A DNA stretch of 63,892 nt, the filler included, from Hausera hauseri (taxonomy: Eukaryota), in the NCBI GenBank assembly GCA_046269625.1. It is 12 parts of 12 records of this genome, joined end to end, with 100 filler letters (N's around TTAATTAATTAA, not from the genome) between each part and the next. Parts side by side here need not be neighbours in the genome. Positions count along the whole stretch, not along the records: positions 45,823 to 49,837 come from JBJURY010818753.1; 11 more parts are not named here. The stretch is one strand, 5' to 3'. Below the pieces are notes generated by a model. The model worked only from the letters and a program-made list of their open reading frames with translations, was not told the DNA's origin and made no database searches. Positions 1 to 59,550 of the stretch are shown here, in pieces. A program made the position numbers and the translations under genes. Numbering within the stretch: position 1 is the first letter of the stretch; every line of letters starts with the position of its first letter.

Positions 1-3000
1 CAAAACGGCTTCTGATGAAAATTACAAAGAGCCGACAAGTTTGCAATCGAAAGTGCAGAAACATCATAATCTCCTGGCGGAAATCGATGCGAACAAAACT
101 CGATTGTATAATGTTAATGATCGTGGAAAAGAATTGTTGGATTCAGATCATAACAAATCAGAAGATATTCAACAGCGCATTGATGAATGGGATCGATTGT
201 GGAATCGTACGGTTGATGCGTCTCAAGTAAAAACAAAAAATCTCGACCAGGCCAGTGGTCAACAACAATTCATTCGAAACATTGAGGATATGGAGATCTG
301 GTTAACTGAAGTCGAATTTAAATTGGGATCGGATGATTGTGGAAAGGATTTGAATAGTGTAACCAATTTGCAGAAAAAACAATTTACTGGAAACCGACAT
401 CATGTCTCATCAGGATAGAATTGATTTGTTTGTCCAGCAGGCCGATAAGTTTGTTGGTGAAGGCCATTTTCATGCTGATGCTATTAAACAAAAACAAGTT
501 GAAGTTTGTAATCGGTATGATAAATTAAGGGACCCATTCGAGAAAAGGAAAAACAAACTAAATGATGCCTACAGACTACACCAATTTTATTGAGATGCTG
601 ATGGTGAAGAAGACTGGATCCACGAAAAAGAGCCCATTGCTGGGTCCAGCAATGTTGGTCGAGATCTGATTGGAGTGCAGAATCTCATTAAAAAGCATCA
701 AGTTATTCAGGCGGAAATTGATGGTCATGAATCAAGAATTCTCGAGGTTTGCAAGGAAGAATCGGATATGATACATTGTGACCACTACGCAAGTAAGGAT
801 ATTCAAAAACGCATTGACGAACTTGGAAAAAACTGGTCGGATCTGAAGGATAAAGCTGATAAACGGCGAACACTTCTTGATGATTCATTAGAAGCTCAGC
901 AGTATTTGGCTGATGCCAGTGAGGCCGAAAGTTGGATGAGAGAAAAAGAGCCACTTGTTGGAAGCACAGAGTTCGGGAAAGATGAAGACTCAACTGAAGC
1001 TTTACTGAAGAAACATGATGCTTTAATGGCAGATATTGAAGCTTATAAATCTACTATTGATTCTTTAAGAGAGCAAGCTAATGCATGTAAAATGCAAGAG
1101 GCACCGGTCAGTGATAGTTATGGAAAGGAAATGGTCATGGCACTTTATGATTATCAGGAAAAGAATCCCAGAGAAGTGTCTATGCGTAAAGGAGATTTAC
1201 TGACGCTGTTGAACAGCAACCACAAGGATTGGTGGAAAGTTGAGATCAATGATCGACAAGGTCATGTTCCTGCGGCCTATGTTAAGAAAGTCGATGCTAT
1301 GATGTCGGAAACAGATCCAAATGCTCCTGAACAGATTACTGTTGCATCTCAGCAAAAGAATTTAGAAGCACAGTATGATAATTTGTTGAGTTTGGGAAAA
1401 GAACGACGGGACAGATTGAAAGATTCAGTTCAGGCATATCAGTTGGTTCGAGAAGCACATGACCTTCATCAATGGGTTGTTGAAAAAGAGTTGGTTGCTG
1501 TTACGGAAGTTATTACTCCTGGTCACTTAGAGGCTGTCCAAAGTGAAAAGAAGAAAGTCGATGAATTAGTTGTTGAACAGAAAGAAAAAGAAGAGAAGAT
1601 TAAAGAGTTGAAAGACAAGGCAAATAAACTGAAGAGAAGTGGACAGACAGAAGCTGTTGAGAAAATAGAAGGTATAATCACTCAATTACAAAAGAAATAT
1701 GAACAGTTGGAGGAAGTGACAACTAAAAAGGTTAAAGATCTTGAAGATTGCTATGCTGTACAGCGTTATCACAGAGAATGCGATGAAGCGAAAGAATGGA
1801 TTGAAGAAAAGGATGCGCGACTCAACACTAATGACGTTGGCAAAGATTTAACATCAGTCCAAAGGCTGTTCCGTAAACATGATGCTCTTGAACGGGACTT
1901 AGTTGCACTTGGTGAACGAGTTAAGATGCTGGATTCAAAGGCAGCTGAATTGGTGCAAACCCATCCGAACGAAGCCGAAGGAATTTGTCAGCACCAGGAA
2001 GAAATAAACGAAATGTGGAATGGTTTGACCAAAAAGGCTGAAGATTACAAAGCGAAATTATTCAATTCTATTGATCTGCAGAAATTCTTGGCTGATTATC
2101 GGTAATTTTGATTTATTGAAAATTTCATTATGCACCGACCAGTGATTTAATGTCATGGGTCAACACGATGAACTCGTTGGTTTCGTCGGACGAATTGGCT
2201 AAGGACGTCACTGGTGCTGAGGCTCTTTTGGAACGACATCGGGTAAATATACGTATATTGTTATTTTTACGCACAAATTCGTTAATTAATGTTTTTTATG
2301 AATTATTTAGTTACTGATGTGGTTAAGTTGTTTGATGAGTCGTATTTAAGGATTTAGCAGTTGAGATTGCTAACCGGACCGGTGATTACGGTATCGGTCA
2401 GGAACCCATTGGCGAGGTATAAATATGAGCATGTATTTTTACATCTAGTCCGAAATTGAATGTCGGTGTTTTATTTTGTGACCACTTTTGTCTGTTAATT
2501 GACCGTAATATCGCATGTACATATTTTGTGAATATTCTACCGTACGTATAATTAGAGTTTTGTATCTTATCCTGTTTTCTTTTTCTCTCTCGTGTCGCAT
2601 AATTATCGTTTCCATTTGGATTTAGGAACACCAATTGGAAATTGAAGCACGGGCTGGAGCTTTCCAAAACTTTGAAGATTTCGGTAAAGAACTGTTGAAA
2701 ACTGGACATTACGCAGAAGACGAAATAAAAGATAAATTGCAGAAAATTGCTGAATCCAAAGAACAGCTGAATGAGTACATAGTAATAATTCATCATTAAT
2801 GATTAATGTTCACGCAGATCGTGGCTCAATCGCAAGAAACAGTTGGACCAATGTCTTGAATTGCAGTTGTATTTGAGAGATTGTGAGCAGGCTGAGGACT
2901 GGATGACCATTCGGGAATCATCTCTTCTTGGTGAAGACGTCGATGACAAGACTGTCGATGCACTCATTAAAAAACATGAGGATTTCAACCGGGCCATCAA

Positions 3001-6000
3001 CATGCAAGAGGAGAAAATGCAGGCACTGAAGGAATTTGCTGATCAACTCACGGAATGTGATCATTACGATAAGGACAAAGTGAAGGAAAAATGTGACGAG
3101 GTACTGGAACGATGGAAAAGTCTAAAAGAAAACATGATCGCCAATCGAGCAAAATTGGGAGACGTTCAGACGCTGCAGGCTTTTATCAGAGATGCCGATG
3201 AGATGGAGATATGGATAAACGAGAAATTGCAGAACACTCTTGATGAATCGTACAAAGATCCGACAACAAACATTCAGGCTAAACATCAAAAGCATCAAGC
3301 GTTTGAAGCTGAATTGGCAGCCAATGCAGAAAGATTACAAAGTATTTTGGGATCGGGACATAGGCTGATGGATAAAGGTAATTTTTATTTTATTACACTG
3401 TGATTTTGTTTCTAATTTGCTTATAGTTATGATGGATCTACTCACTTGTTTATATGGTTTCCTTTATACAACAATGTATACAGAATGGTTTTAATTAGGA
3501 TGACTGACTACACCAAGAAATAGCTATAAACCGCCTAAACTTAATATGACAAATGTTTAAAAGCGATTCTTACAACGGTTGCCACAGTTACGTTCTTAAA
3601 GTGCACAGGATTGAAGATATTGATTTTTGGCCCTGATGTCATTTATTTCTATCACCCTGAGGAAATCTCAATAACAAATTGATTTGGCACATATTGGATC
3701 AGCTATTTTGCGTTTCTATAAGTGGCTTTCAGTCACAAACTAACTTTTTATCTATTTTCTTTCCATTAATGGTTATATATTAATTTATCCAGCTAAGGGG
3801 TTTTTTGTAAACATTGATTTCTAATTAAAATATAGAATTTAATTAATTACTTTTCTCCAGGTCAGTGCATGGGTCAAGAGAATGCGGTCGAAGAACGAAT
3901 TAGCAAGTTAGCCGACCAGTGGGATTACCTCGTCGGTAAATCCAAAGCTAAAGCCGAAAAACTCCAAGAAGCCAACCGCCAAGCTGTTTACAATGCCGAG
4001 TTGAAAGACATGGAATTCTGGCTTGAAGAAGTAGAGCATTCATTGTCGAGTCCCGATTATGGCAAAGATTCTGCATCTGTCGACAGTCTATTGTCAAAGC
4101 ATCAAGTACTTGGAACGGATATTCAGGCTCACGTGGATCGTATTCGTGATTTGAACGAGAAAGCCGATGAATTCCTGGAATCCGGTACTGTCGATGCTGA
4201 TACTATTAGGGAGCGGAAGAAAATGATAAACGAACGATACGAACGCGTGAAACAATTGGCTGAAAATCGAGCTGTTACTTTGGGAAAAGCTAAAAGATTA
4301 CACGATTTTTACCGAACAATTGATGATGAAGAAGCCTGGATTCGGGAAAAGAAAATATTGGTCAGCAGTGAAGATTACGGACGAGATTTGATTGGCGTTA
4401 GGAATTTGAAAAAGAAGCATCAGAGATTAGAAAACGAAATCAATGCCCATGAACCGGTTGTGAAAAGTGTTCAGAAACAAGGAGAGGAGTTGGTAAATGA
4501 ATCTCATCTGGCCGATCCGGAAGAAATTAAAAGAAAGCTGGTCCATTTGGAAAATGCATGGGATGAATTGCAACGCTTGTCAGCTATTCGTAAGGCTAAA
4601 CTTGAAGAATCATCAGAATATCAGAAATTTTTGGATACTGTCGAGGAAGAGGAAGCATGGATACTCGAGAAACAGCACTTGCTTAGTAGCACTGACTATG
4701 GCGATACATTGGCTGCAGTTCAAGGACTGCTGAAAAAGCATGATGCATTTGAAACTGATTTGACAGTAAGACATTAATTTGTGTAACTCTTGTTATCAAT
4801 TTATTACAAGGTTCATGAGGAAAAATGTGGCGACATTTGTGCTGATGGTAAAAGGCTAATAGATCAAAACAACCACAATTCTCGCGCCATCGAACAGCGA
4901 TGCGAGGGCCTTAGAGAGAAACTGGAAGTACTGCGAAAAGCTGCTGAACGCAGGAAGCAGTGTCTTGAAGATAATTCTGCCTTCTTACAGTTTATGTGGA
5001 AGACCGATGTGGTTGAATCGTGGATTGCCGATAAGGAAACTCAAGTAATTTTTTGACAATCGATCTGCTCACATTGATAATTGCGTTTTCAGATACGAAG
5101 TGACGATTACGGACGAGACTTAAGCAGTGTTCAAACGTTGCTAACGAAACACGAAACATTCGACACGGGATTGGAATCATTTAGAATGGAGGGAATCGAA
5201 GTCATCACCGCACTCCACAACCAGCTGACGGAGTCTAAACATGCCCAGAGCGATGCTATTCGTAATCGTTATCAGAATTTGATGCAACGATGGGAAAGAT
5301 TACAAAAGGAATCCAAAGTCAGAAAGGAACGTTTACTCTCGTTGCAAGAACGATACAAGAAAGTGGAGGAACTTTATCTGACTTTTGCAAAGAAGGCGTC
5401 AGCTTTTAATTCATGGTTCGAAAATGCCGAGGAAGACTTGACAGATCCGGTACGATGCAATTCCTTAGAAGAAATTCGGGCGCTTTGCGAAGCTCATGGT
5501 CAATTTAAAAATTCTCTGAAGGCTGCCGAAGAAGATTTCCGGTATTTGGCAGAATTAGATAAGGAGATTCAGAGTTACGGGGTACATACATGAGTTGCAT
5601 TCATGCATTTTCAATAAATCATTCAGGTTGGTGGTAATCCATACACATGGTTCACAATGGAGGCTCTGGAAGAGACTTGGAAGAATTTGCAGAGAATCAT
5701 TCAAGAACGAGACTTGGAGTTGATTAGAGAAACAAAACGCCAAGAAGAGAACGATATTCTACGTCAACAGTTTGCCGAACTTGCGGACAGATTCCATCGC
5801 TGGTTGCAGGAAGTTAGATCGGCACTGATGGAAGGAAGTGGAACACTGGAGCAGCAACTGGAAGCGACGAAAGCCAGATCAAAGGAGATTAAAGATCACA
5901 AAGTCGATTTGAAACAAATCGAAGAGAAAGGAGCAGTGTTAGAAGAACGACTTATTTTAGACAATCGCCATACAGAACACAGCACAGTACGCATAATATT

Positions 6001-6335
6001 CGTCTTTCCTTGTCTTATTGGATGGTTAGGTCGGTCTCAGTCAGGCTTGGGATCAGTTGGATCAGCTGGCCATGAGGATGCATCACAATTTGGAACAGCA
6101 GATACAAGCTCGTAACGTCAGCGGCGTCAGTGAAGATTCTCTCAGAGAATTTTCGATGATGTTCAAGCACTTCGACAAAGATAAATCCGGTAAACTCGAT
6201 CACCGAGAATTCAAGTCCTGTTTACGAGCTCTCGGAATGGATTTGGCGTTTGTGGAAGAGGGTCAAGTCGATCCCGAATTTGAGGCTATTCTGGCCGTTG
6301 TCGATCCTAATCGAGACGGATTCGTGACGCTTCAA
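1..6335 (+). CDS. SPTAN1: Spectrin alpha chain (non-erythroid type), partial at both ends, multi-exon
   Basis: Tandem spectrin repeats (e.g. [41 protein letters not shown]), an SH3 domain ([37 protein letters not shown]) and C-terminal EF-hands ([25 protein letters not shown]; [12 protein letters not shown]). GT-AG introns that restore the frame: 2102-2142, 2243-2625, 2775-2817, 3378-3860, 4766-4810, 5045-5092, 5582-5626, 5987-6029. One frameshift (~380) and one TGA (591-593) lie near the 5' end. Confidence 0.96.
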
Positions 6336-6342
6336 GTAGATA

Positions 6343-6522
6343 CGCGTCCTCGAGGATCTCGTCGATCCGGTCGATACCGCCTTTACGGATCGCGTCGTCG
6401 ATCAGCGCCTGCTGTTCGGCTTCCAGGTGTTTCCGGCTCAGAATCAGGGGCAGGGTGGGCTTTCCCTCGGCCAGGTCGTCGCCGATGTTCTTGCCCAGGG
6501 TGCTGGCGCTGGCGGAAGAGCG
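6343..6522 (-). CDS. ispB: Fragment of bacterial octaprenyl/polyprenyl-diphosphate synthase
   Basis: Abrupt switch to GC-rich DNA with bacterial-type codon usage. Translation LGKNIGDDLAEGKPTLPLI...LIDDAIRKGGIDRIDEIL matches the GKxxGDDLxEGKxTLP motif of trans-prenyltransferases. Confidence 0.8.
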
Positions 6523-6567
6523 CAAGACTATCCTCAGTGAATCAGGCAATTCTCAATCTGCCCAGGT

Positions 6568-6667
6568 NNNNNNNNNNNNNNNNNNNNNNNNNNNNNNNNN
6601 NNNNNNNNNNNTTAATTAATTAANNNNNNNNNNNNNNNNNNNNNNNNNNNNNNNNNNNNNNNNNNNN
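6568..6667. other. Artificial contig-joining linker (first of 11)
   Basis: N44-TTAATTAATTAA-N44. Identical linkers at 13818-13917, 22875-22974, 27322-27421, 32626-32725, 36852-36951, 41358-41457, 45723-45822, 49838-49937, 54388-54487 and 59307-59406. There is also a 10-N scaffold gap at 37728-37737. Confidence 0.99.
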
Positions 6668-10312: not shown

Positions 10313-12050
10313 GTGCTCGCCTCCGTTGCACCACATCCCCTCTCTTTTTTCATCCTTTCTAACGATAAACATGTCCACACATTAAGGGTTACGCACAAAC
10401 AAACAGCTCATGTTCTCTATACGGAATTGTTCTCCTTTTTTGGCTCCTCCGATTTTTATCTTATGCACAACGGTCTAACTTTGCAGCCGTACGACTTTTT
10501 TTATCCTTTACATCTGAGAAATATTCCATCACTCTCACTGTCCACTTTCGCATCCGTGGTGGATCAGACCTTCATCCTTCTACGGAACACTCAACAAAAA
10601 CCAGGTCTGGTCGTTGTCCTGTCGACCCCACACCATCAACATCGCCAAACCTTCCCTGTACAGACTTCTTTTTGATAAAACGAACTCGAGCCGAATTTGG
10701 TTGCAGTTTCATTTGCAATGGCTCAAAGCCAATCACATTACGGATTCCTTTCTGCTGGCTAACAGTTTGCTGTTATTACTACCGGGCAACATCAAGCAGC
10801 AAATCAGTAATCTGGCTGACATACTCTCTTCTTCAAGCCCGTATGATATGCTGTACGAATCGGTTCTACATATCACCGACCATTCTATCGACAGCATAAT
10901 CCAGAAGTATTTCAACGACCACGCGATTGGAAATCAAAGACTATCGGATTTCCTTAAAACGGCCATCTCACAACTGAGCTCTTTAGACGTGACTCCTATA
11001 AATAATGCCGATATTCTTCGTCGGTATTTTCTTTCATCTTTGCCAACCTCCATTCGAGCTTTGCTTACTGTAGTAGATGACTCTACTGCCTTCAAAAAGC
11101 TTGCCTTGTTGGCAAACAAAAGCTTTGAAATTCTGCAGTCCAATAACTCGCAGCCAATAGCCGTAGTAACTGCTTACACACTGCCAGAAAACACTTCATT
11201 TGCACAACAACTAAACATGATGCAGAAACAGTTCGATACCCTACAACAAGCAATTTCTGTAATCACAGCCCAACTCAGCGACTTATATGTACCCCGAGGA
11301 AACGAAAATCGTATTTCCCGCGATCGCAGTTTTTCCAGTCACTCTTCTCGTTCTAAATCTAGAGATGGTAGAATGACGTGCTTTTATCACAACAAATTCC
11401 GCAAAGATGCAAGGAAATGTGTTTTAGGCTGTCGATTCTACGATGCACGATATGCCGTAGACAATCCAATCTGCATCTATCACGCAAAGTACCAGTCAAG
11501 GCTAGGTCATGCGTGGCAGGATGTAAGTATTATAAAAGGAATTCTAGTTCTCCATTTTCTTCGCCTCCGCGCAGTTACCATTACTCCTCTTCCTACCAAC
11601 AAGTCTCAAAAAACCAATAATGCCACCAGATGCCATGGAACATTCTGGTACTGGCAATATCGTTCAAACTACTGGCCGTTTCAACACCGCTTCTGCAGTC
11701 TTTCTGTTAAAAGCTGACCTATTACTTGGAGACACCTCACACATAGATTTCCTTATTGATTCAAGAGCTGCATTTTCACTTCTTCCTTTGTCTTTCGCTT
11801 CTACATCCAACACAGTTTTTTCTCTTCCACTCTTCACTGCCTGTGGTCAAACTTTGAACATTGTAGGTATCACAAAGCTCTCCTTATCATTCTACAACCT
11901 ACCAGGGAAATTTTCCTGAAATTTTCGCATAGCAAATATCAGATCGCCCATGATAGGCTCCGATTTCTTGGCTGCATACGATTTGTTAGTCGACTGCAAG
12001 CATAAATACCTCATGCGCAGAAACTTCATTGAAGACTCTACCAAATGCTC
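10313..12050 (+). mobile_element. Decayed Ty3/gypsy LTR retrotransposon 5' part: ubiquitin-like domain - Gag - duplicated Cys/His box - aspartic protease
   Basis: Gag-type ORF 10614-11717 with CFYHNKFRKDARKCVLGC and a second, frameshifted copy CIYHAKYQ/KARSCVAGC. Protease remnant FLIDSRAAFSLLP...IGSDFLAAYDLLVDCK. Upstream UBL ends HFRIRGG at 10563. Several frameshifts and stops; no RT follows. Confidence 0.8.
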
Positions 12051-41457: not shown

Positions 41458-43300
41458 CTCGTTCAATTGTTGACCATTTACGCTGTGTTTCGCTTAACGT
41501 TTTACTAAGACATTCTATTATTCCCTCACGTGGTCTATCAGGTACTGCTTGTCTTAAGACTGCTCCTATAGCATAACCACTGGCATCAGTCATTATTACA
41601 TAGGGATATTTGTGATTAGGGAATTTTAATATTGGTGGTGAAGTTAGTACTTGTTTTAAACCTTCGAATGCTCTCTGTTGTGTTTCTTCCCAAATCCATG
41701 TTGTTCCCTTCTTAGTTATTTCTACTAGAGGTTTAACTATACTTGCAAAATTATAAACAAATTTCCTGTAATAATTGGCCATTCCTAACAGCCGTTGTAA
41801 TTCTTTAAGACATTTAGATGGTTTTAACTTTTTAAGTTTTTCTACATTTCTAAGGTCAGGTTGAATACCTTTGCTTGATACTATATGTCCAAGAAAGGTA
41901 ACTGTATTTTTAGCAAATTCGCATTTTTTCATTATTATTTTTAAATGAGCTTTCTTTAATTTATCAAACACTAAAGAAATATGTTATAAGTGTTGCTCGA
42001 AGTTTTCAGAAAATATTATTACATCGTCTATGTACACTATGTAATGAGTTAATCCTTGTAATACAAAATTCATACATCTTTGAAATGTAGCCGGTGCTCC
42101 TGTTAGACCAAAAGGCATAATATTGAATTCCCATAATCTAGTTTTGGTTGAAAAGGCTGTTTTCTGTTTATCTTCTTCAGCGACTTCAATTTGCAAAAAT
42201 CCACATTGTAAATCTAGGGTAGAAAATACTGTGGCATTTCTTAATGCTGTTAACATCTTATCTATTTTTGGTAATGGATAATTGTCTTTCTTCGTAAAAT
42301 TATTTACCGCTCTAAAATCCACACAAAATCATTGTGCTCTATCTTTCTTTTGTACTAATACTACTGGGGATGTCCATGGTAAAAAGTTTGGTCAAATAAT
42401 ACCATGTTCCATCATTTGTGCTATCTGTCTATCGCATTCTTCTTTTTTAATTTCTGCCATTCGATATGGATTTTGTTTAATAGGGTAGGTGTTTTTCGTA
42501 ATTATGTGGTGTTGGATAACGTTAGTTCTACCAATGTCATTATCATTCATAGCTATGATATCTCGATACTTGTGAAATAACTGCAATAGTTTCTTTAATT
42601 GATATGGGGTTACGTCACCATTTTTGAATTTTATATTCTGGTTTTCTACTAAAAATGTTGCTGCACATACCTTGACTGGTTGCAACTGTCCTAAATTGAG
42701 GTTCTGCCGTAATTTGATTTCCTTCTTATTAATGCTTTCTCTTGGTAATTCTAAACATTGTACTTCTTTCGGTACAAATATAGGATATTTCAAAATCTTG
42801 TATTTCTCATTATTATATAAATTTGGTTTAAACATACAAGTTTGTTTATGATAATGTGATGGTATTTTCAGCATTACTACTATCTGCTGTTGAGGTCTAA
42901 CAATAACATCGTGAGTTAAGGTCATGCTAATTTCCTCAATTGGCAAATTGGTCATCGTATATTTTAGGGTTTTGGCAGATAGATCCATCGAAAGTCCTGA
43001 AATTTGAGATAATATGTCCATTTCTATTACCAAAGGTACATGCAATATTTTATCATCCACCACGAACAGAGTTATGGTGTATAAATTACCATCAGTTTTT
43101 ATTCTAGTGCTTATTTTTCATAAAAACTGTATTTGTGTAGAGTTAGCTGCTGCGATTACTACATCGCTTGCATAATTTCTGCCTTTTGATCATCCGTTAA
43201 ATATGAATGTCGGATCATCGACACGGATGCACCGGTATCTAACAGTGCCATAATATTTAATCCATTGAATCGTACCGGAATATACAGGTTATTTCCTGTT
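41458..43300 (-). mobile_element. Ty3/gypsy-type pol (PR, linker, RT, RNase H)
   Basis: ALLDTGASVSMI (DTG at 43231-43239); DFRAVNNFTKKDNYPLPKID, FSTLDLQCGFLQI, WEFNIMPFGLTGAPATFQRCM, VYIDDVIIFS; RNase H YVIMTDASGYAIGAVL. Confidence 0.95.
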
Positions 43301-43679
43301 GCTATTTTAGTTTGATTCATAAAAATAAATTTTGTATTATTTCGTCGGTTATGTTTGGTATTATATTGTCGAAGTACATTTGGTGGGTAAGCAGTACTTG
43401 GTAGGCAGATGTATTTATCTGAATCTCTTATTAATGGAAGTTCATACATGGATGTATCTTTCATGTCTCTACGATCTAATTCTGGGCATTTATCGATGGG
43501 TTCATGTTTATAGTATGTTGGTGCTTCTGGCTCAAAATATTTTCTTGCTTTCTTTCTTAACAATTTATACTTAACTAAGTATTCTTCTACAGTCAACTTA
43601 ATAAAAGCTTGTAGCTGTTGTTCTAGTTCTGGGGCTAAGAGAAGTTCTTTCCTTAATTTATTAAGTTCCTTTGCATGCC

Positions 43680-45560
43680 AATACATTAATACTGACTTAG
43701 CCATTGAAGGGATACAACCCAACATGATTTGCCATGTACAACCGCGTACTTTCTTTATATTTCCGGCAGCTCCTTTTTGTCTTAATATAACTAATACAGT
43801 AGTGATTATAACGTATATGCCAAAGATTCCAGATATTACTTGGCCAAAAATGAGGAATTTATTCCAAAAATCATAAAGAATCTTCTTAGCTGTTTTTTCC
43901 AAATGATCAACTGGAAATAAAATTCCGTAATTAGGTGTTCCGTCTGATCCTTTTAAAACAATGTATACAAATTCCGTTATTACCTTTTCTCGGATATTTT
44001 GAAATAATACTTGTTTTCTTACTGCTTCCAGGTCAGTTAACAAATATAATCCACTGTTAGGAAGTTCTCTATTTACCATAATTTCATTCCTTTATCTAAT
44101 GGTAGTAATCCAATTGTCTGTTGTACGTTCATCATAGTTGGTGGACGTGTTTTAGTCCATCTTTCATCACTAAGCTTAAAAGCTGGATAAAATTCTTTGT
44201 AGCATGGTGCGAAGGTAATTTCCGTAGGTAATAAGAATTTACGAGTAATAGGGTCTAAATATCCAAATTTGACAACATTTTTATCATTATATTGAACCAT
44301 TAATTCATTCGTGCAATTTGCTCTTGTAGATGTTATAGGCGTCACTTCTATCGGTGGATATTGATATACATGGAGTATTTCCCCTTGTATTCTACCAAAT
44401 GTTCCGGGGCGATATCCCATGATTAGAGCAATATGTCCAGGAAACTCTCTCGCCAATATCAAATCATGTTGGTTTAATTTTTATGTGATTTTGCAATCTC
44501 TTATTACCATCACGTTATACAGTTCAACTAAATCCTTTTTTGCAGTATGATAAATATAATCTATTTTGTTATTCGTATATAAGTACCACGTTATATCCTC
44601 AGTTGGTAATTTCCAGTACTTGCTAAAGTATTTTTTGTTACAAAGAGATCATCATATGATGTAGGATAAACGGCATTTGATCCACAAGTTGACACTGCTC
44701 CTTTCCGTGCTAATACTATTCCATCTCTGTCGTTGGATGACATCAAAAATTTTAAAGAAGCTGTCTTCTGTAAAAACCGTGGGTCGGGTAAATTTTTGTT
44801 ATGGTTATGTACAGATTCTTGATATTCGTCATCGTAATATAGATCACCTTGTATCTCATACATAAATATTTATTTTAGAAAAGCTAATGGACATATCATA
44901 ACTGTTTTCTCCCAAACTAATATAGATTCTCCTGAAGTACACACTCCATCAGAATATGTACAAGATGGTGCCGTCAGCATTTTTCCGGTAATTGCATCAA
45001 AGTTTACTTTATATTCTTTTATCGTGACGGTAAAATCTTCTATTTGCACTACAGAGGATTCCTTTTGTCCATTTATCATCATGGTTTCTCCATCACGGCC
45101 CCATCCATATACGGGCTATATTTTTTTAGCTGTAACTATCCGTGAATAAACTCGTTTTCCTATGCTTGCTTGTACTGGCTGCTTTAATCCTACTTGAATT
45201 GAATCTGTGGCTTTTCTACAATCTTCAGCAGTTATTGTTACAGGTTTTGGCAATCCTGGTGGAATAATTACGGAATTCCATGAGTTATGGCCACAATTAT
45301 AAGCAAATATTACTTTATTAACCTGGCATTCCTTTATTTGAACTTGCTGATAACTAATTCTTTTGTACAAATTTTAATTATAAGGACCCTCCTTCTTTAC
45401 TGATATTGGATTTGCATTTTGACATTTACCTATATCTACCAGTGAAAGTCTAGCTGTTATCTCGGGTTTAGAACAATCATAGGCTTCTAATGCTGTCGTA
45501 GTTTTTAAGCTGCTAACGACTATCAGGTATAATAACAAATGAATGATTTTTACTACCCAT
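43680..45560 (-). pseudogene. Chuvirus/Jingchuvirales-type envelope glycoprotein whose TM and tail run in frame into the protease
   Basis: Signal peptide WVVKIIHLLLYLIVVSSLKTTTA, then LEAYDCSKPEITARLSLVDIGKC; AYNCGHNSWNS; CTYSDGVCTSGE; YTNNKIDYIY; FGRIQGEILHVYQ; CTNELMV; NSGLYLLTDLEAVRKQVLF; TM FWNKFLIFGQVISGIFGIYVII. ORF 43159-44079 contains both the TM region and the LLDTGA protease motif. Confidence 0.82.
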
Positions 45561-45822: not shown

Positions 45823-47830
45823 ATCTCCCAATTCACGGCCATCATTTTTCCAGTTGGATCATGGAGAACCAACGCTTCAAATGGGATATTGACCTTCCCA
45901 TTCTTACTTAGCAAATTCATTTTTACTCTCTCTATTTTTTACTTTGTTGTTCCTCCACCTACCACCATGACAGACACGTTTTCCAGACTCCAAACTAATT
46001 TCAGTTGCTCTGCGACAGATTGTTTTACGAAGCATTCTGTACTCGCGTCGTCCAACAACATACACACCTTTACTCTTCGTTCTCCACTTTCCAACCATAT
46101 ATCCACAGTACGCAGTGCTATTTTATTTCCTGTTGGGGCCTTTTCTGATCGTCAGGTCACGTAAGAGCTAACTTGCGCCTCTAAAACATCACCTTCGCAT
46201 TCATCCTTTTTTTTCCTTAATTCTTCATTACCTTGCACAGTGTAAAATGTTCTTTCTTGTTTTTTGGATGTATTTTTCTTAGACGGTGAATCATGAGCAT
46301 AACGACATTTTTCTCCATATTTGCAATTTCCTTTCACATAATACTTACAAACTTGTGTTTTACTATTTCGTTCATTAATATACAGATATTTACAATTATT
46401 TCCAAATTTGCAATTTCCGCTTTTCTCGAACTCCCAGCATATTTGGTTTTCGGCTTTGTTCATTGATTTAATACTATTATCCTTTTCCGTTTTGTTTGGA
46501 ATTGACGCCTCATTCCTGCTGACATTTTTGTCTACATAAATCTTCTTTTTGATTTTCTTTGAAATTCATGTTCTTTGGAAAGTATATGATTTTTATTATA
46601 AGCGAGAAACCGTTTTTCAACTGTCATCTTATTTTCATCGTACGTCCGATTAGACTCATATTCTCTTCCTGGATTAAAGGTGTTTATACCTCTGATTCTT
46701 TCGATTGTATTTCTTCGGACACTTGCTTCTATCTCTACCCACAATTTTAACTCCTCAACTGTACGATTTGACTTCTTTTTAGCAACATGTCTTTCTCATA
46801 ACAATACTATGGACTCTGGGAGCTTTTCAATTAGACTTTGATACAACAGTCCTCCACATAATTCTTCCTTCCTCCCGAAATTTTGTAGTCTCGCTGTTAT
46901 GCCATCTAATAATGCGACAAACCGATCTAGTCCTTTGATATCCTCTTCTCTGATTGGTTTGAAGCGCATCACCTCGGTCATAAAGGCAGCATAACACCGT
47001 TGCTCTCCTCCGTAGTAGGAGTCAAGCGTTTCCATCGTGGCTTTATAACCTACTTCATACAGGTCGAAGTTTTCAATTAACCTTTTCGGTTCACCATGAA
47101 GACATTGATTTAATTGCAATTGTTTGTAGATGTCAGACATTGGCGTCTTATGAACGCAAGTGTCAAACGTTCTTTTCCATTTATCATATTCTGTAATTAT
47201 ACCGCCGAACTTTGCGAGTTCTAACTTTTGAAATTTTGGTAGTACAAATTTTACTTTTACATCACTATTCGCCCCTTTTGCTTCATTAATCGCCGATTTG
47301 CTTTCTCGTGAGCTTCTTTCGTAAATAATTGTATTAATTTTTTCGTTCTGTTCGTCTGACTTCTCTATTTCATTTTCCAAAAAAGTGATGTTTTCTTTCC
47401 TTTTTAATTTCCTTGCAGCGGCTGCTAATATCCCCAAATTTTCCTGCAGGTCTGAAAAAGTTCTGTCGTATCATTGTTGGAACATGCTATATTCCTGCTC
47501 GTTCAAATTTATATCCATCAACTTTCGCCGGATAGTCGCCAAGTTATTTATGGGTTTTCGCCTTTCGGCAATACGTTCTTCTAATTCGTCTGCTGTCATT
47601 TCGCTCCCTCTCTTTAGCTTTAACGTTAAGTGAAGTGTTGCAACGTGTCTTAAACTTTTCACTGATCCGTCGGTCCGTAGCGGCTTTCCGGCATGTAATA
47701 GACTGAATTCCTCGTTTATTCTCAAGATTTTCTTTATAATCCCAATTAGATCACAATATGACTGAGTTTCAGCTAAATCTACCACGAAATTACGTCCACC
47801 ACAAAGTACGATTACTTGTTTTCTTATTTG
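45823..47830 (-). mobile_element. Decayed BEL/Pao LTR retrotransposon 5' part: UBL - coiled coil - DUF1759-like Gag - 2x CCCH finger - protease
   Basis: LPKFQKLELAKFGGIITEYDKWKRTF...LNQCLHGEPKRLIE...YKATMETLDSYYG is DUF1759-like Gag. CWEFEKSGNCKFGNNCKYLY and CKYYVKGNCKYGEKCRYAH are the CCCH fingers. Protease: IALRTVDIWLESGERRVKVCMLLDDASTECFV. UBL and Gag are in one frame, separated only by a TGA at 47471-47473. Confidence 0.88.
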
Positions 47831-49940
47831 TCCAACTCTGTTTTCCGAAATCTTGTTTACCCTTTTTTCATTTATTCTTCCTATCTGATATGGCGACTCT
47901 ACCCCTCCTAATTCCCCATCTTCAAAAAGATTCGAAATATTTTTTGAATTTACACAGTTAGCTTGTATCTCTACGCTTAACTTCTCAAACTACTTTTCAA
48001 CATATTGGAGTTCCGGACATCCGATGATTTCTTGTAATTTATTTAATCTATTATGGTTCTTTGTTTCAAACAAATTTCGTTTATAACACATTTCTTTGAT
48101 ATCTGTTACAGACGATACTGTCCGCCGATAGCTAATCTCTATTTGTTTAGAGGCATAGACCTTTGATACATTTTCTTTTAAATTTTTATTGCCCTCGGCA
48201 TAATGTTCTACAACTCCCCAACTTAGCGTCACTCCTGCAAGATAGTCACGGCTTTTCCTTTTATTCGTTTTCTCATAACTCCTCACCGTACATATTTTGC
48301 AAAAGATTCTCGCCTTTATTTCAAACTTAGAATGGAATGAACAAGAACCGAAAACGAGGAAACAGACATAAAGACATCGGAAGACAAATGCTTCACGTGG
48401 TTTGTACTCGCGGATCACACCTCCTAACTCGTCCTGGTTGCTACACATGTTAATTTATAAACCTTTCTAAATTTCCAAGTTTCTTTATTCAATATATTAT
48501 TATATAAAAAACATTTATATTACTTTACATGCATTCCTGACCATTGTTCTCGCGGTGTCTCTCCGCGGGGGAATATTTCCACCGTTAAGTATAATCATCT
48601 GCTCAGACATTCCGATTTTAGCAGACACACAATTCCTGTCAACATTCATGGAAACAAAAAAGAAACGATAACGGAAAACCATAATATTAATACAACATCC
48701 GACATTAACTAACACTTTCCATTCTATGTGCTCTATCAGATTTTGAATCACGATTTCTAGTCTACCATCAAATTTTTCCAAAATCAATTTCTCTGTCAAT
48801 ATAATACCGGCAATTAAGTGTCTTCCGATAGCTTTTCGTTTCTTTTCCCTTCTCTCTCTATTCCCCGGGGAATATCTAAACATATCCATTCATTTTATAA
48901 ATTTTAATTTTTCAATGACAGAACGTATGAAACTATACCGATATGATTTCCTCATATTTTTATTACGTATTTCCATATATATAACTTTCCCAGTTGAAAA
49001 ATAATGCAATATTTGCGAACTGAAATAACGCATTTCGGACACATTCATTTTATGTTTCTTTTGAGGCATTTTTCCGACTGAGTTTTATCTTTTTTCGAAG
49101 AGAAGCGAGACACATGTCCCCTGAATCTTTCTAAATCATTATATGTAAATTTATTTTCAGCTTTCTTAATATTTATACAGAATCTTATTTGAAAAGATAG
49201 TCTAGGATGAATAGATAAAAACATTCCAAGTGTAATCTTCCAGAAATAAAAATATGATCTTAATTACTCTAAGAATAAATTTAGGCAATATGCCAGGTTT
49301 TGAATGTCAGATGCTTTTAGATAATAATTAGTAATTTTCCCATAACATGTAGAGTTGCAAACTAAATTTTTAATTCAAATGCTAAATATTTTGTTTATGG
49401 TAAACTACTGTGCTGTATGTGACATCTTCCTCTTTTGCTTCTTTCTGTTAAAAAAGAAGTAAAAAAGGAACTTCTGCTTCTTCATCCTGCTTATTTACAA
49501 TTGACTTGTTATTTTTAAATGTTTGAAGTGCAATTTCTGCACATTGTGCCAGTTTTCTAAGTGTCATTAATGTATCATACTTTTTCACTTCTTTTTTCTG
49601 ATAACAATCCTTTGATTGCTGGTGTAAAGGAACCATTCATTGTGTTGAATTTTTTTTTGAAAAATATTATTAGATAAAGATTGTTTGCATATCTGCTTAC
49701 ATAATTAATCTGTTTATGCAGTGGCGATAACCATCCCTTCTCCTCCAAACTCCGTCTATATCTTTAAATCATTTTTTATAAAACTTTGTTAACAATAATG
49801 CTAATGAATATAAATGAAAAAGGATATACAAAAGAAANNNNNNNNNNNNNNNNNNNNNNNNNNNNNNNNNNNNNNNNNNNNTTAATTAATTAANNNNNNN
49901 NNNNNNNNNNNNNNNNNNNNNNNNNNNNNNNNNNNNNACT

Positions 49941-51185
49941 GTGTGTTCACTGAATAGCCAAGATTCTTTCAATCCTCAGGCATGTAGTCTTGGAGCTTCG
50001 GCACGTGGTAATGACAGCAGTTCTTTTAATCCTCAAATTTATAGTTCGGCTATATTAAATGAAAATCAGGGTATTGAAAATTGGATGAATGATAGCGATT
50101 CTTTTAGCCCTGATCTATTCGGAGTGGGATCTAAAGGTTGTATGAATGTGAATGAAGATCAATGTCCTTGTGCCAAAGGTACTGTGTGTTCACTGAATAG
50201 CCAAGATTCTTTCAATCCTCAGGCATGTAGTCTTGGAGCTTCGGCACGTGGTAATGATAGCAGTTCTTTTAATCCTCAAGTATATAGTCTTGGATGTTCC
50301 AGATGCGGTAATGACAGCAGTTCTTTTAATCCTCAAATCTATAGTTCGGCTATATTAAATGAAAATCAGGGTATTCAAAATTGGATGAATGATAGCGATT
50401 CGTTTAGCCCTGATGTATTCGGAGTAGGATCTAAAGGTTGTATGAATGTGAATGAAGATGAATGTCCTTGTGGCAATAAAGGTACTGTGTGTTCACTGAA
50501 TAGCCAAGATTCTTTCAATCCTCAGGCATGTAGTCTTGGAGCTTCGGCTTGTGGTAATGATAGCAGTTCTTTTAGTCCTCACGTATATAGTCTTGGATGT
50601 TCCAGGTGCGGTAATGACAGCAGTTCTTTCAATCCTCAGGCAGGTAGTCTTGGAGCTTCGGCTTGTGGTAATGACAGCAGTTCTTTTAGTCCTCACATAT
50701 ATAGTCTTGGATGTTCCAGGTGCGGTAATGACAGCAGTTCTTTCAATCCTCAGGCATGTAGTCTTGGAGCATCAGCATGTGGTAATGAGAGCAGTCAGCG
50801 TGATGACCAAATAAATCGTCTTTCGTTTGATATCCCACATGACGAATCGTCAAATGCGGAAATCCCTTGTGCTGCATTTCTCATGTACAATTCTAGTTCC
50901 AATAGTAAATCTCTCGAAAATTTGGTATACAAAGGGAAAAGTGTGGATATTGAAATAAAAAATCCTCCAAAACCCATAATAAAATGTTACCCAGACGGAC
51001 TGTGCAGTCTGAAATATGAAATCAATCCGAAATTTATTCTCAACATTTCCCGAGTACCATTGCAATATATTGTGCAAGGTGATTGTGAGAATATGTCAAA
51101 TTCACTGAACGTTCCATGTCTTCAGAAGGGTGCAGTACAAGTGTCTTTTAATGAGTCATCGAAGGACATAGTCGAACAGTGTTAA
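49941..51185 (+). CDS. Cys/Ser/Gly/Asn-rich tandem-repeat protein, 5' truncated, unknown function
   Basis: Open 414-aa ORF with 19-aa (57-nt) repeats SSSFNPQACSLGASACGND nested in ~81-101-aa higher-order repeats. Unique C-terminus, with AATAAA at 51305. Confidence 0.7.
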   Translation: MCSLNSQDSFNPQACSLGASARGNDSSSFNPQIYSSAILNENQGIENWMNDSDSFSPDLFGVGSKGCMNVNEDQCPCAKGTVCSLNSQDSFNPQACSLGASARGNDSSSFNPQVYSLGCSRCGNDSSSFNPQIYSSAILNENQGIQNWMNDSDSFSPDVFGVGSKGCMNVNEDECPCGNKGTVCSLNSQDSFNPQACSLGASACGNDSSSFSPHVYSLGCSRCGNDSSSFNPQAGSLGASACGNDSSSFSPHIYSLGCSRCGNDSSSFNPQACSLGASACGNESSQRDDQINRLSFDIPHDESSNAEIPCAAFLMYNSSSNSKSLENLVYKGKSVDIEIKNPPKPIIKCYPDGLCSLKYEINPKFILNISRVPLQYIVQGDCENMSNSLNVPCLQKGAVQVSFNESSKDIVEQC

Positions 51186-53800: not shown

Positions 53801-54487
53801 AGAACATTATCCTACTCCACTATTTTTGTTTGCTGAAGCAAGCATTGTTTTCTGTGCCAGAATCACCTTGACCCATGAAGAATCACCCATGAAGAAAAGC
53901 GTAGACGAATGACACGAAAAACCTGCCAGATACTTATAGCCCACTTTACTGCAAAACAGTTCGGCTGATGTCTGAGGTACTGTAAGTGCCTTGCTGACCT
54001 ATAACAGGCTCTCTAATGAACCTCTTTCACCTTCACATTGTTACTCTTGGGCAAAAGAAGGGAATCCTGCCAACCAGTGGGATGAGGATCAAGATAGTCA
54101 CTAGCAGAGTGGTAGATCCCTTTTAAGACATGAGGCATTGCATTACTGCCTAGAGGACTTCGGTCCATTTCCTAGACACTGCTTGTTATGATGCTTGCCT
54201 GTTTCTTGTTTACGATGCTTGCTTCTTTTCACAGTGTTTGTTTGTATGTTTCATGTTACTATTTGTCTGTTTCTTTTTACAATTCTTGTTACAATCTTAG
54301 CTGTTAAAGTGATGCAAATATTGTGCACACCGAACTGAGACAGTGAAACACCACCTGCTGTCTTGCCCCGCACTCCAGGAGCTAAGANNNNNNNNNNNNN
54401 NNNNNNNNNNNNNNNNNNNNNNNNNNNNNNNTTAATTAATTAANNNNNNNNNNNNNNNNNNNNNNNNNNNNNNNNNNNNNNNNNNNN

Positions 54488-57400
54488 CAATAGTTCTTTC
54501 CGAGTAATACAATATCCTTTTTCATGGCTGTTCATTGTGTGTGATCCGTATGCAATCACTCTCTTGCGCCCCAAACTATCCTTCTGTGACTGTACAGCTC
54601 CAATTGTGTCGAAGCTTGCGTCCATAACGAGGATAAATTCTCTGTTGAAATCAAGGAAACCTAATATTGGCGGTGTGGCCAAGGCTCTTTTCGTTGACTC
54701 GAAAGCCTCATTACATTGCTCGGTCCATATTAGTATCTTGTTATTCAATCCTCACAGTTTCTGCAGTGTCTTGGCCTTTGCTGTGCAACCTTGGATAAAT
54801 CTTCTGCAGTAGTTGCAGATCCCTAAGAAGCTTCGCAAATTCTTGACACATTTTGGTTTCTAGAAAGATTTAATTGCTTCCAGTCTGTCTGTATCCTCTT
54901 GTAATTCACTACGTGCCATAAAAAGTTTATTTCTTTCTTCAGGATGTGACATTTCTTTGGGTTCAATCGGAGACCTGCTTCCCGGATCCGTTGCACTACC
55001 TTTTCTAGTATCCTATAATGGTATTCTAGAGTCTTGGAGAAGATTAGTATTTCATCGAGTTATACCACTGTTTGTTCAATGTTTCCTAGTACTTTATTCA
55101 TTAGTTCTTGGAAGGTGCCCGGGGCTGCTGCTATACTGAATGGCATCCGTTTGAAACAGAATTGCCATAATTTGGTTGAAATCGCCGTCTTCAATTTGGA
55201 GTCTTCCTCTAGCTCCACTTGATAGTATGCATTGCCTAGATTGATTGACGTGAAAAACTTGATCCCGAATAACCTGTCCAATATCTCTATCACGTTAGGC
55301 ATGGGGAAGGCCTGCCGTTCCGTTATAAAATTTAGCTGTCTGAAGTCCAAGTATATTCTGACATCGTTCTTGTCTTTCTTCCATACGCATATCATTGGTG
55401 TATTCCATGCTGAGTTGCATGGCTTGATAATGTCGTTTTCCCATAGGTTTCTGATGATCTTGTCGTTCTTTTTCTATAACTTTACTTGTTGCTTATAAGG
55501 TTTGATACTGACCGGCGCTCCTGTCGTGTCTATTCGATGTTTGATGAGATGTGCACCCTATGTCCCACTTGTCGGCTATTAATACTTCTGGACATTTCTG
55601 TATAATATTTAGTAGCTCTTTGCTGTCACTCACCTGAAGAGCTTTCTTCACCCTGTTGACTCGTTCTTGGTTACTCACTTTATGGCCTAACTTGGCTTCC
55701 AGGTTGCACATATGTTACTGTAATGTTTCTGTTTCCGTGCGTTTCCATTCCAGTTCTATTCCGAATGCCTTTTGCAGGTCCGCGCCACCTATTATTTCTG
55801 GGCGTAATTCTCACACTACCAGGAATATTACACGACTCCTTAGACCCTTGATTTCTATATCTGTTGTAAGTGTGCCCAGGCAATCTAAGGGGCTATTGTT
55901 CGCGCATCATAGTGTGGTATCCAATTTCTCTATGTGTGTGTTTGCAAGTTTATCTACGCTCTTCTTGCTTATAACGTTGACGCTGGCCCAAGTGTTTAAT
56001 AAGCAATCTTCCCATCTGTCTTGTATCTTTAATTTAATTCCTGATCGTCCATTAAACTTCCTGTATGATATCTGTTCGACGCAAAATTCTTCTAGCGTGA
56101 CGATCTGCGTATCGTTCTCATTTTCCTTCATTCCGTTGAAGGATACTTCTTGGAAATTTTCCGTTTTTATAAATGTCCGTACTTTTTCCTGTGTCCTTTT
56201 ATCCATCAACATATCTCCGTTTCGCTTTCTTCTTGATCTATCTATATTGTTTGATATACTACTACTATTATACATAACGATATTTTGGGACACGGAATCT
56301 ATTGTAGTGCACCGATTTTCGCCACTTCTGTCGAGGTTCTGCCTTTTTGGACAACTGACTCCTGTTCCAATTCTGTTTCTTCTTTATCTACGTTTGCGAT
56401 TCTTCCCCTCCCCGTTTTCTGTTCATATTATCCCCGTATCTTCTTTTGACGTTGTATATATCCCATCTTGGTTCTCTTTTCCCCTCCAACCTGGTGTAGA
56501 ACTCCGTTTCGGTATGTCCCCTATGGTGATATCTTGCAAAGGTACGGTTTGTACAATTTCATCTCATGTGCCCTAGCTGACCACATCCGTAACAGCTTAC
56601 TGGCTTCCTTTTGAGACACTACATGATTATGTGTCCTTCTTTTCCGCATCCAAAGCATTTAATCGGTCTCAATGTGGTGCAAGTTCTGCTCGTATGTCCT
56701 TCCTTCTGGCATGTCCAACACTTTTATCCACTATTTGGTGGTCTAGTTTGCGTCGCCTTGATTCTTGGAACTGGTTTCTTGATATTTTGTGCTGCCACTT
56801 CCTAGTAGCTTCTTCTACCGATCCCCGAATACTCCTTAACCGTGTTGACATCTTCTGCCTTAATCTTTACCTCCTGTATCTTCCGTATTTTCTCTTCATG
56901 GTTTCCGCATCTCGTTTGTCACTGAGGCAAATTTCTCATCTCATCTCTCTATTATTACAACATTGGAACAATGGTTTCTCTTTCAGAGCATCGCGAGAAA
57001 GATCGTGATTCATTACTTTATCCAGCAGTTTCTCAATTGCCTCAAAGTAAGCTTCCGGTTCCGGTCCATTCATTCTGTACTCGAGCGCTTCTTTCAGATC
57101 TTCGCACAGCGTTGAGAGTCGGGCGAAAACCTTCCGTAGTCGGTTTTGATATCCACTTATTCTCGCATCTACTGCCTCGTACCTTTCAAGTGTTTCTTCC
57201 TCCAAGAGGCATTCAACCATTATTTCGTGCTTTGCCGCCGGGGTGTTCATATATTTAAAGAATTTTTCACATCCTTTAATGAACTTCTCCACGTCGTCGC
57301 CTTTACTGAATTTGCTGGGCAACAATTGGTTTGCGAAAATGTCCATTGTGGCGCAAGTCACCATGTTGGACGCGGACACGTCCACGCCGTCCACCTCGTC
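54488..57400 (-). mobile_element. Decayed Ty3/gypsy LTR retrotransposon: gag with 3-4 CCHC knuckles, PR, RT, RNase H
   Basis: Gag 57394-56936; knuckles CWTCQKEGHTSRTC, CFGCGKEGHIIM*C and CYGCGQLGHMR*NC; PR CLLNTWASVNVI (degenerate DTG); RT YLDFRQLN...NLGNAYYQV...FKRMPFSIAAAPGTFQ; RNase H FILVMDASFDTIGAV. Confidence 0.93.
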
Positions 57401-59550
57401 TCCCAGCTTGGATAGGGTTGGAAAACCCTGCCCCTGTCATGTCCGCTAAAGCAGAATTTGATCGTTTGTAATTACTCATTGCAAATTAACACCAGCTGTT
57501 GAAAATTTTATTGCATCTCAAAATACTCCTTTGGAAACAAACTTTTCGAAAATTCCAAAATTAAATTATACCTTTAATGTTGCATTTTAAATTTAAATTC
57601 ATGGTCGAATTTGTAAAATTTGAAAATGTTTCTAATTTAAATTCAGAATTTCCGTTCTCGATTATATCCTCACAAAACATCTTTTTCTGTATTTGTATAT
57701 TTCGTTTTCCTTACATAAATTATGCATTATTTGGACAAGAAATTTGTCCGAATAAAAAGTGGTCGCCCTGAGTATAGTTCAGTAGTTAATTACTGATTTT
57801 CTCATTTTTAATTTAATATTGGTGAATAAGATTTGTAATATGATTGAAAATTCAGCTAAAATGTTTTGGAAGTTATAAAATCTCAGAAATTAAATAAAAA
57901 ATTTAAGAAATAAAATACTAGTCTCCCATTTTCTAGAAATATCAAATAATCAGATCATTTAATCCATACTTTCAGGCAGGGTGTGTTCTTAGGTTTATAA
58001 ACATCCACATATTGCAATTATGGTTATACAGACATTCCTAACATCTCCATAAATTTTATTCAATTTGCAAATTTAATACATATGCATTGTTATTATTTTA
58101 TTTTTTGTACAGTTCCTAAATAATTCTGCAATTGAAGTATTGTACTGCATGTAATATATTTCCAATATCCAATACTATATCAACATAAAATTTCCCGTAA
58201 ACTAGTCAAGATTTAAATTAATTGAATAGCGAATTTCAAACAATAAATTTTCCATACCAATAGCTAATGTACATAAAAACTAATTGTAAATTAAAAAAAA
58301 CCCATAAATGAACTTTCGCGGTTTTAATAAAACCGAATTACATTTTTGCAGTATTGCACGAACTTTACGAATTCCAAATTAAATATGCTTTCAAAACGGG
58401 CTAATTTAGAATGATTTTAATTTTTCCAAAAAGCGCTGATTTTCGAAAAGTACATAAGTATTTGAATAATACGACTGCATGTCGAAAATAATTAAGTGTA
58501 CCAAGTAACAATAATTGTCTTTGTGTCCTAAGGACAATCTAATGAGTAGAATTTTTCTCACCCACTTTTTGCGTGTTTGCATGTACAAACGAATGAATCA
58601 AACTAGCAACACTAAATTTCTTTTTCGACTTTCATTTGATAGGCAGACATTGGCTGTATTTACAATTTACAATAGCTATTAAGTAACCAGTGGCTAATAA
58701 ATAAACCTCCCTTTTAGCAATACGTGCATAGGTATAGTTGATATTGATTATTATGACCGAGTTAGTTGATTCAATGAGATCCACTATATTTCGATTTGTG
58801 TAGCAGATATCAATGCATGTAATAATTGCTTTCATAATGATCCAATTATTTACCAATTCACAACAACACCATATGTTACTTTTTAATCATTTATTTGACG
58901 TATTCATTTTAACTTTTATTACTCATGATTTCTGTTGGTATATACTTGGATTTTTCATTTGTATACTCTGCTTCGCTATCAGTTATTGAAGAAGTTAATG
59001 ATCCGTGACTGTATTTCATTAAAGACCATGGAATGGAGTCGAAATTTCATCCGACAATCGTTAGACAAATTTTGAGGAAATTCCAATTTGCCACTTGCGA
59101 TCTTTGGGTAAATTTATGAATTACTGTTAACAGTTTCAACAAATTGTTAACTGTTTTTTACAAATTCAATTGTCATTCCCAAAATGGTTTAATACCTGAT
59201 AGTAACTGATTCTTGTCCAAACTTTGAATGAAACTTTATGAAAATCAAGGGTTTTGTTACAAAAATTTCTGCTGATTAATTATATGAAAAATGGTTTATA
59301 AATAAANNNNNNNNNNNNNNNNNNNNNNNNNNNNNNNNNNNNNNNNNNNNTTAATTAATTAANNNNNNNNNNNNNNNNNNNNNNNNNNNNNNNNNNNNNN
59401 NNNNNNAAAGTTGATTGACCGTATTTAATCACAAATATATATTATTTTGCTGTTTGTTTTCGTGAATCAATATAATTTATTTCACGTGTCTTTGTTGTTG
59501 TTACATTTTAGTATAAATACTTGCGTTTCTTTACGGTATGACACTACGAA

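Follow-up and report, generated by a model that had tools for sequence, protein, structure and literature searches.

The window analysed here, a stretch of 63,892 nucleotides from Hausera hauseri in which contigs are joined by N-linkers, contains a retrotransposon gag with a ubiquitin-like segment in frame upstream of it. Normally, a retrotransposon Gag begins at a start codon of its own, and the protease of the element carries out its processing. The question raised by this locus is what a ubiquitin-like domain does in front of Gag. A host-cleavable leader, a folding chaperone, and a budding signal had been proposed in the original prediction.

Organization of the element

A contig of 4015 bases (45823-49837) carries the element on its minus strand. 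The copy is decayed and belongs to a BEL/Pao retrotransposon lineage. A single frame from 48454 to 46535, with three stops translated as X, encodes the leader, the ubiquitin-like domain, a coiled coil, and DUF1759 (Table 1). The shared frame with the coiled coil and DUF1759 had been predicted correctly, but the claim that only one TGA breaks it does not hold. The coiled coil is interrupted at 47471-47473 and the DUF1759 region at 46796-46798, further stops were found at 47990, 46152, and 45939, and the frame changes between 46535 and 46469.

Table 1. Features of the BEL/Pao copy, in the order of its reading direction
Feature	Position	Strand	Evidence
Candidate 3' end of a 5' LTR	48448..48494	-	AATAAA at 48489, CA at 48449-48448; sequence only
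In-frame leader, about 209 codons, stop at 47990-47992	47822..48448	-	Open frame; 0 of 20000 shuffles as open
Divergent ubiquitin-like (predicted beta-grasp) domain, 72 codons	47606..47821	-	Fold predictions, identity to P0154, profile match
Gag N-terminal coiled coil, begins Ser-Glu directly after the domain	47267..47605	-	70/115 identical to P0154
DUF1759 (BEL/Pao Gag capsid region) and following helices	46634..47209	-	Pfam PF03564, E 1.2e-15
Two CCCH-type zinc fingers in nucleocapsid position, other frame	46290..46439	-	Pfam zf-CCCH, E 7e-13
Start of BEL/Pao-type aspartic protease, stop at 45939	45825..46151	-	tblastn to P0037 519-616, E 1e-13; also P0002

The capsid fold is based on Pfam and the helical model, and tblastn similarity to the relative P0154 extends to 46634. 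Three long helices were modelled in the coiled-coil region of P0154. The first CCCH finger of the window copy is without its His ligand, and no Pfam protease family matched the protease piece of the window. The contig ends inside the protease, i.e., reverse transcriptase (RT), RNase H, and integrase lie beyond view. No second LTR copy was found in the window, where the candidate end at 48448 was the only one seen. Two more open stretches lie upstream on the minus strand, 48515-48889 (a 124-codon frame) and 49448-49636, in the same frame as the leader and Gag with stop-rich gaps between. A family search of these two stretches gave no match.

The BEL/Pao Gag context of the original prediction was borne out by the PF03564 match and by the Pfam domains of the relatives. 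The nearest full-length relatives carry Peptidase_A17, RVT_1, and DUF5641, and a BEL-type aspartic protease follows Gag directly, with DUF1758 or Asp_protease_2 at this place in P0025, P0031, and P0057. CCHC zinc knuckles are typical of BEL/Pao Gag. Two CCCH fingers were found instead in the window, P0002, and P0152. The ubiquitin-bearing P0037 retains CCHC knuckles, so the finger swap appears confined to a sub-lineage. By the sequence of capsid and protease, the element was filed as BEL/Pao-derived with a variant nucleocapsid. In P0002, the Gag-protease frame enters a piece of the host ciliary protein CFAP58 (residues 920-993, Pfam E 2e-18) instead of RT.

Other features were seen elsewhere in the window. 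A neighbouring contig carries at 43162-45373 (minus strand) a broken viral fusion glycoprotein (Pfam Monjiviricetes_fusion, E 1e-13) that runs in frame into a retroviral-type aspartic protease, and this envelope-before-protease order resembles that of Burro elements (PMC6431247). A long frame of Cys/Ser-rich tandem repeats, with spacings of 57 bases and 243-303 bases, occupies 49938-51185 on the plus strand. By eye only, 594-6623 (plus strand) was read as a multi-exon, intron-containing alpha-spectrin-like gene (repeats, SH3, EF hands). Together with the Burro-like layout, this gene points to an animal host, probably a flatworm. More decayed LTR-retrotransposon gag/pol pieces, Ty3/gypsy-looking by eye, lie at 54440-57436 (minus strand) and 10518-11717 (plus strand).

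Identity and fold of the domain

The quoted ubiquitin-like peptide was confirmed on the minus strand, where the domain proper comprises 72 codons (47606-47821). Its placement at the N-terminus was mistaken, i.e., the domain is internal, with about 209 in-frame codons and one stop upstream of it.

Sequence alone is weak evidence for the identity of the domain. The Pfam ubiquitin family (PF00240) matched neither the window domain nor that of P0154, and the best family for the window domain was SAMP2 (E 0.01). Its best sequence match in the PDB was an eS30 fusion chain (E 0.2). The FUBI origin hinted at by this match is not supported; the best-kept relative is nearest to ubiquitin itself. Against a profile of five relatives the window domain scored 7.8 bits, under the best of 2000 shuffles (9.7). 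The window and P0154 domains taken as a pair scored 31.4 against a ubiquitin-like set (E 1e-5), with a maximum of 17.3 in 200 column shuffles.

The window domain is predicted to fold like ubiquitin (beta-grasp), and the single-sequence model, Foldseek, and VIA are all consistent with this fold, which the original prediction had expected. The model shows the beta-grasp order, i.e., strands 5-10 and 13-18, helix 25-36, and strands 42-46 and 65-72, at a block pLDDT of 50-76 across the domain. The top Foldseek match of the model was ubiquitin (TM 0.72, rmsd 2.6, E 1e-3), and no match had an E below 1e-3. With VIA, 13 chains reached a Z of at least 8, the best one 8.5 with an rmsd of 2.5 across 73 residues. 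Z values of this size are middling according to the warning of the tool, and its best 50 rows were mostly ubiquitin-like or other beta-grasp chains. In the ESM Atlas, ubiquitin and Rad60-SLD clusters were found at 0.90-0.92, below unnamed clusters at 0.92-0.94. The model of P0154, made from a 54-row alignment, has the same element order in its domain at a pLDDT of 88-94.

Arg42/Arg72, the Ile44 patch, and Gly75-Gly76 are the landmark positions of a conjugatable ubiquitin-type modifier. The window domain deviates at these positions (no Arg42, and Lys72, Leu44, and Arg75), and P0154 has Gly72, Ser44, and the Gly-Gly end. Both domains are also far from ubiquitin, with, e.g., 16/56 and 15/68 residues identical to P0019. 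Since Pfam is blind to the divergent form, the trait is probably under-annotated.

Distribution of the domain among relatives

A phmmer search over 1.84 billion representatives gave 1127 matches at E 0.001. Among the best 150 of these 1127, which were examined, six Gags (P0004, P0006, P0007, P0009, P0019, and P0037) show, immediately ahead of the same coiled coil, either ubiquitin or its C-terminal part. PF00240 was found in five of the six, i.e., P0004, P0006, P0009, P0019, and P0037, at E 4e-28 to 7e-7. P0004 is nearly true ubiquitin (E 4e-28) and ends in LRLRGG. P0002, the closest among the phmmer matches listed (65%), has the final eight residues of the domain at its very start. P0154, which came from the profile search, has an unbroken 640-residue frame and is 61% identical (243/400) to the window protein; the similarity sets in at the first strand of the domain and extends through the capsid. 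The identity between the two is 27/72 in the domain, 70/115 in the coiled coil, and 104/145 in a further Gag stretch, i.e., the domain, which has no indels, diverges faster than Gag. All relatives are predicted proteins from assemblies, one prediction each.

Other families thus carry the domain in frame with Gag (P0154 and the six more distant Gags), and the original prediction, which depended on this and on a predicted beta-grasp fold, stands in both respects. An assembly chimera was rejected; the domain-Gag junction recurs in independent records. Judged from these sequences, the fusion is a lineage trait across several related families.

A broader profile over 153 capsid-bearing proteins found no additional domain (next best E 0.07), and Pfam found no ubiquitin-type family in 47 neighbouring Gags, although very divergent domains could escape both. 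A word-based homolog search with the domain region, insensitive as it missed P0154, gave 0 of 604 candidates. A weak search for full-length Gag-Pol with the domain gave 0 of 8000 scored longer proteins, and the searched viral contigs and metagenome contigs held no family loci. Locus L001 carried a ubiquitin-like domain on an unrelated protein and was dropped.

A tree was made from 160 capsid columns with the ubiquitin-like domain excluded. The nine domain rows, i.e., the window, P0154, P0002, P0004, P0006, P0007, P0009, P0019, and P0037, which are also the nine rows of the comparisons below, fell on one side together with four rows truncated at the N-terminus. On the opposite side, at a support of 100/99, were 45 other rows, chosen as those with the longest upstream sequence among the 153 after removal of near-duplicates. 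By capsid sequence, the trait is clustered on the tree. When four distant rows were added, the 45 nested inside the domain-bearing group and two changes were required, a result that carries a long-branch warning. This tree is compatible with a single capture followed by losses as well as with several captures.

Conservation of the junction

The domain ends in Gly-Gly in seven of the nine rows, which agrees with the di-glycine end expected of the family; the window has Arg-Gly and P0006 has Glu-Gly. The residue that follows is Ser in five of the seven and Gly or Met in the others, never Pro. Deubiquitinases also cut at a ubiquitin that is located between two proteins, provided that the next residue is not Pro (PMC3692480). 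By sequence, this feature of fusion cleavage is present in the seven rows and absent from the window and P0006. From the junction to the capsid motif there are 122-131 residues in eight of the nine rows and 113 in P0006. Among 66 proteins with enough upstream sequence, Gly-Gly at that distance was found in the seven and in two domain-less proteins. The nine rows are related, i.e., the conserved junction does not represent nine independent events. In the P0154 model, Gly-Gly is located in a loop between strand 223-229 and the helix at 239.

The domain may remain attached to Gag and help it to fold or to stay soluble, or serve there as a binding scaffold, with Gly-Gly as no more than a flexible hinge. 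In favour of this are a fold predicted with high confidence despite drifting surface residues, the frame that the window and P0006 keep without Gly-Gly, and Burro polyproteins, which have an internal Ubi2/SUMO-like domain for which the part of PMC6431247 used here describes no cleavage. However, a hinge needs neither Leu at -4 nor Gly-Gly exactly at the end of ubiquitin, and both are kept in Gags whose capsids are about 25-30% identical. P0004 is moreover so near to ubiquitin that its cleavage would be expected by default (cf. PMC3692480). We consider permanent attachment unlikely.

Across the seven longer domains, 56 columns are filled throughout, and of these L50, T66, L73, and G76 alone show no variation. 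Positions 8, 42, 44, 68, 70, and 72 vary, e.g., L, S, I, L, L, V, and S at position 44 and C, Y, L, L, I, a gap, and L at position 8. These variable positions are those of the hydrophobic patch and of Arg42/Arg72 in ubiquitin. Lys48 is retained in four of the seven domains.

This pattern bears on a role as a budding or trafficking signal that would recruit ESCRT or other ubiquitin receptors, or as a built-in degron that would limit Gag. The retained Lys48 speaks for such a role, as does the restored budding of L-domain-deficient EIAV Gag after fusion to ubiquitin (PMC2768365). However, the EIAV rescue requires the surface hydrophobic residues of ubiquitin, whereas positions 44 and 8 vary here, and the engineered fusion was C-terminal (PMC2768365). 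In addition, no env was found on the 4015-base contig or in the nine proteins. Conservation of the terminal Leu and Gly, together with drift of the Ile44 patch and of Arg72, favours a deubiquitinase site over a budding signal, and a signal of this kind appears very improbable.

Copies in run X1

Run X1 is perhaps from the source organism and is not independent of the window. Its 1354 contigs on the 4-kb contig indicate that the family has many copies, and 106 contigs lie on 47540-48010. The summed contig depth, about 800-1200 across the domain, drops to 7 in the space of 130 bases upstream of it, and loose contig ends were found at the domain start (47821 and 47829). According to a table read by hand, seven contigs, i.e., 71 of 78 depth units at the site, encode the di-glycine end. 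One listed piece (47547-47707) joins the domain and the coiled coil without a gap, and no indels inside the domain were present among the variants listed. One contig skips 210 bases (70 codons, 47581-47792), nearly exactly the domain, on an anchor of only 25 letters. A purifying signal was not significant, i.e., 14 of 32 listed sites were synonymous against 10.2 expected (P 0.11), with the decay of the window copy itself mixed in.

Leaders upstream of the domain

The window leader matched no Pfam family and stayed below 0.8 in the Atlas, and the window copy has no in-frame Met between the leader stop and the domain. Two parts of casein kinase II alpha were tried for 47993-48292 (minus strand) and rejected as not significant (E 0.06-0.08, one PDB sequence). 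In the P0154 model the leader is mostly of low confidence except for one long helix. The four rows with long leaders (77-211 residues) are mutually dissimilar (best E 1.4). The leader of P0009 contains an in-frame, decayed piece of HSP90 (P0009 residues 76-141, Pfam E 1e-11) ahead of the ubiquitin domain.

The domain could be a neutral passenger, i.e., ubiquitin captured with scraps of host mRNA, tolerated because the host removes it or because Gag starts downstream, and slowly decaying. The lineage does capture host pieces (HSP90 in P0009, CFAP58 after the protease in P0002), the synonymous excess is weak, and 45 neighbouring Gags are without the domain. An in-frame Met is also present after the domain in the window. 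This Met, however, is not conserved in P0154, P0002, and P0004. A passenger would moreover have to keep a fixed spacing and, between the window and P0154, a domain free of indels, although the adjoining leaders are unrecognisable. Slow decay of a neutral passenger is judged quite improbable.

Proposed role of the domain

On balance, we lean towards the domain being a signal for cleavage by host deubiquitinases, which would cut behind Gly-Gly and so release Gag with a fixed N-terminus. The domain would have originated by capture of a host ubiquitin mRNA, and translation would begin at a start upstream of the leader. Host deubiquitinases would then cut after Gly-Gly, and Gag would begin at a small residue whatever the leader. 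The benefit may be that the leader, which holds host gene scraps in at least one family, could change freely without entering the capsid.

The unbroken natural fusions, the junction, the invariant L50, T66, L73, and G76, the loop in the P0154 model, the unrelated leaders, the depth profile of run X1, and precedents in other systems were counted for this proposal. Counted against it were the two of nine rows without Gly-Gly, the divergence of the domain faster than Gag, the lack of a significant purifying signal, and the run X1 contig that skips the domain. Many deubiquitinases read the body of ubiquitin as well as its tail. As the window and P0154 domains are far from ubiquitin, these enzymes may have ceased to accept the close family. 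The window copy, broken and without a di-glycine end, would not itself be processed in this way.

Of the leader, chaperone, and budding roles proposed earlier, a host-cleavable spacer fits best with the sequence evidence. The budding role fits worst, because the hydrophobic-patch residues are not conserved and a cleavable ubiquitin upstream would leave Gag.

A further proposal, which we hold only tentatively, is that this BEL/Pao lineage made host deubiquitinases a part of Gag maturation. One old capture would have uncoupled Gag from what lies upstream, and the 5' end would have become a slot for changing host-gene pieces, which would be released as leader-ubiquitin proteins. The domain itself would have kept only its cleavage tail and lost its signalling surfaces. 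If the cleavage reading is true, it would account for how these elements tolerate pieces of host genes in the reading frame of Gag. The series from the near-ubiquitin of P0004 to the barely recognisable domains of the window and P0154 would also represent a natural test of how substrate drift relates to cleavage.

Comparison with known systems

No account of ubiquitin in BEL/Pao Gag was found among the papers listed by full-text searches. The word "ubiquitin" occurs 0 times in the main text of the BEL/Pao survey of de la Chaux and Wagner (2011, PMC3118150), and the main text of PMC13524379 mentions neither ubiquitin nor Ubl. The element shares with the BEL/Pao elements (Belpaoviridae) of PMC3118150 the DUF1759 Gag, the coiled coil, and the BEL-type protease start. 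It differs from these elements by the ubiquitin-like domain and the long variable leader before Gag, and by the CCCH fingers in the close family.

The closest published cases are the planarian Burro elements and the ubiquitin insertions of pestiviruses. Burro elements are giant Ty3/gypsy-like elements whose polyprotein has a captured Ubi2/SUMO-like domain (PF11976; Arkhipova and Yushenova 2019, PMC6431247), i.e., ubiquitin-like cargo in LTR retrotransposons is already known. The likeness is a captured ubiquitin-like domain in an LTR retrotransposon polyprotein. However, Burro belongs to another superfamily, its domain follows Gag and is flanked by MATH and BCL-2 domains, and no di-glycine cleavage role is described for it in the part of PMC6431247 considered.

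Natural ubiquitin fusions and the ubiquitin reference technique (PMC3692480) are likewise linear fusions cut after Gly76, also if ubiquitin is internal. They differ in being host genes or engineered constructs with true ubiquitin.

In pestiviruses, a captured ubiquitin with a piece of S27a upstream gives NS3 its N-terminus (PMC8310069). Cytopathic pestiviruses such as BVDV CP Rit and Osloss have host ubiquitin inside the polyprotein with foreign sequence upstream, and the insert is cut by host hydrolases to give an authentic next N-terminus (PMC8310069, PMC13517609). This is the same mechanism as that proposed here for BEL/Pao Gag. The pestivirus inserts, as these sources present them, are sporadic, recent, and near-intact ubiquitin in an RNA virus, whereas the BEL/Pao domain is fixed across divergent retrotransposon families and strongly diverged in some. 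If the proposal is true, the BEL/Pao fusion would represent, in fixed and heritable form, a trick that until now has been documented in pestiviruses as sporadic insertions.
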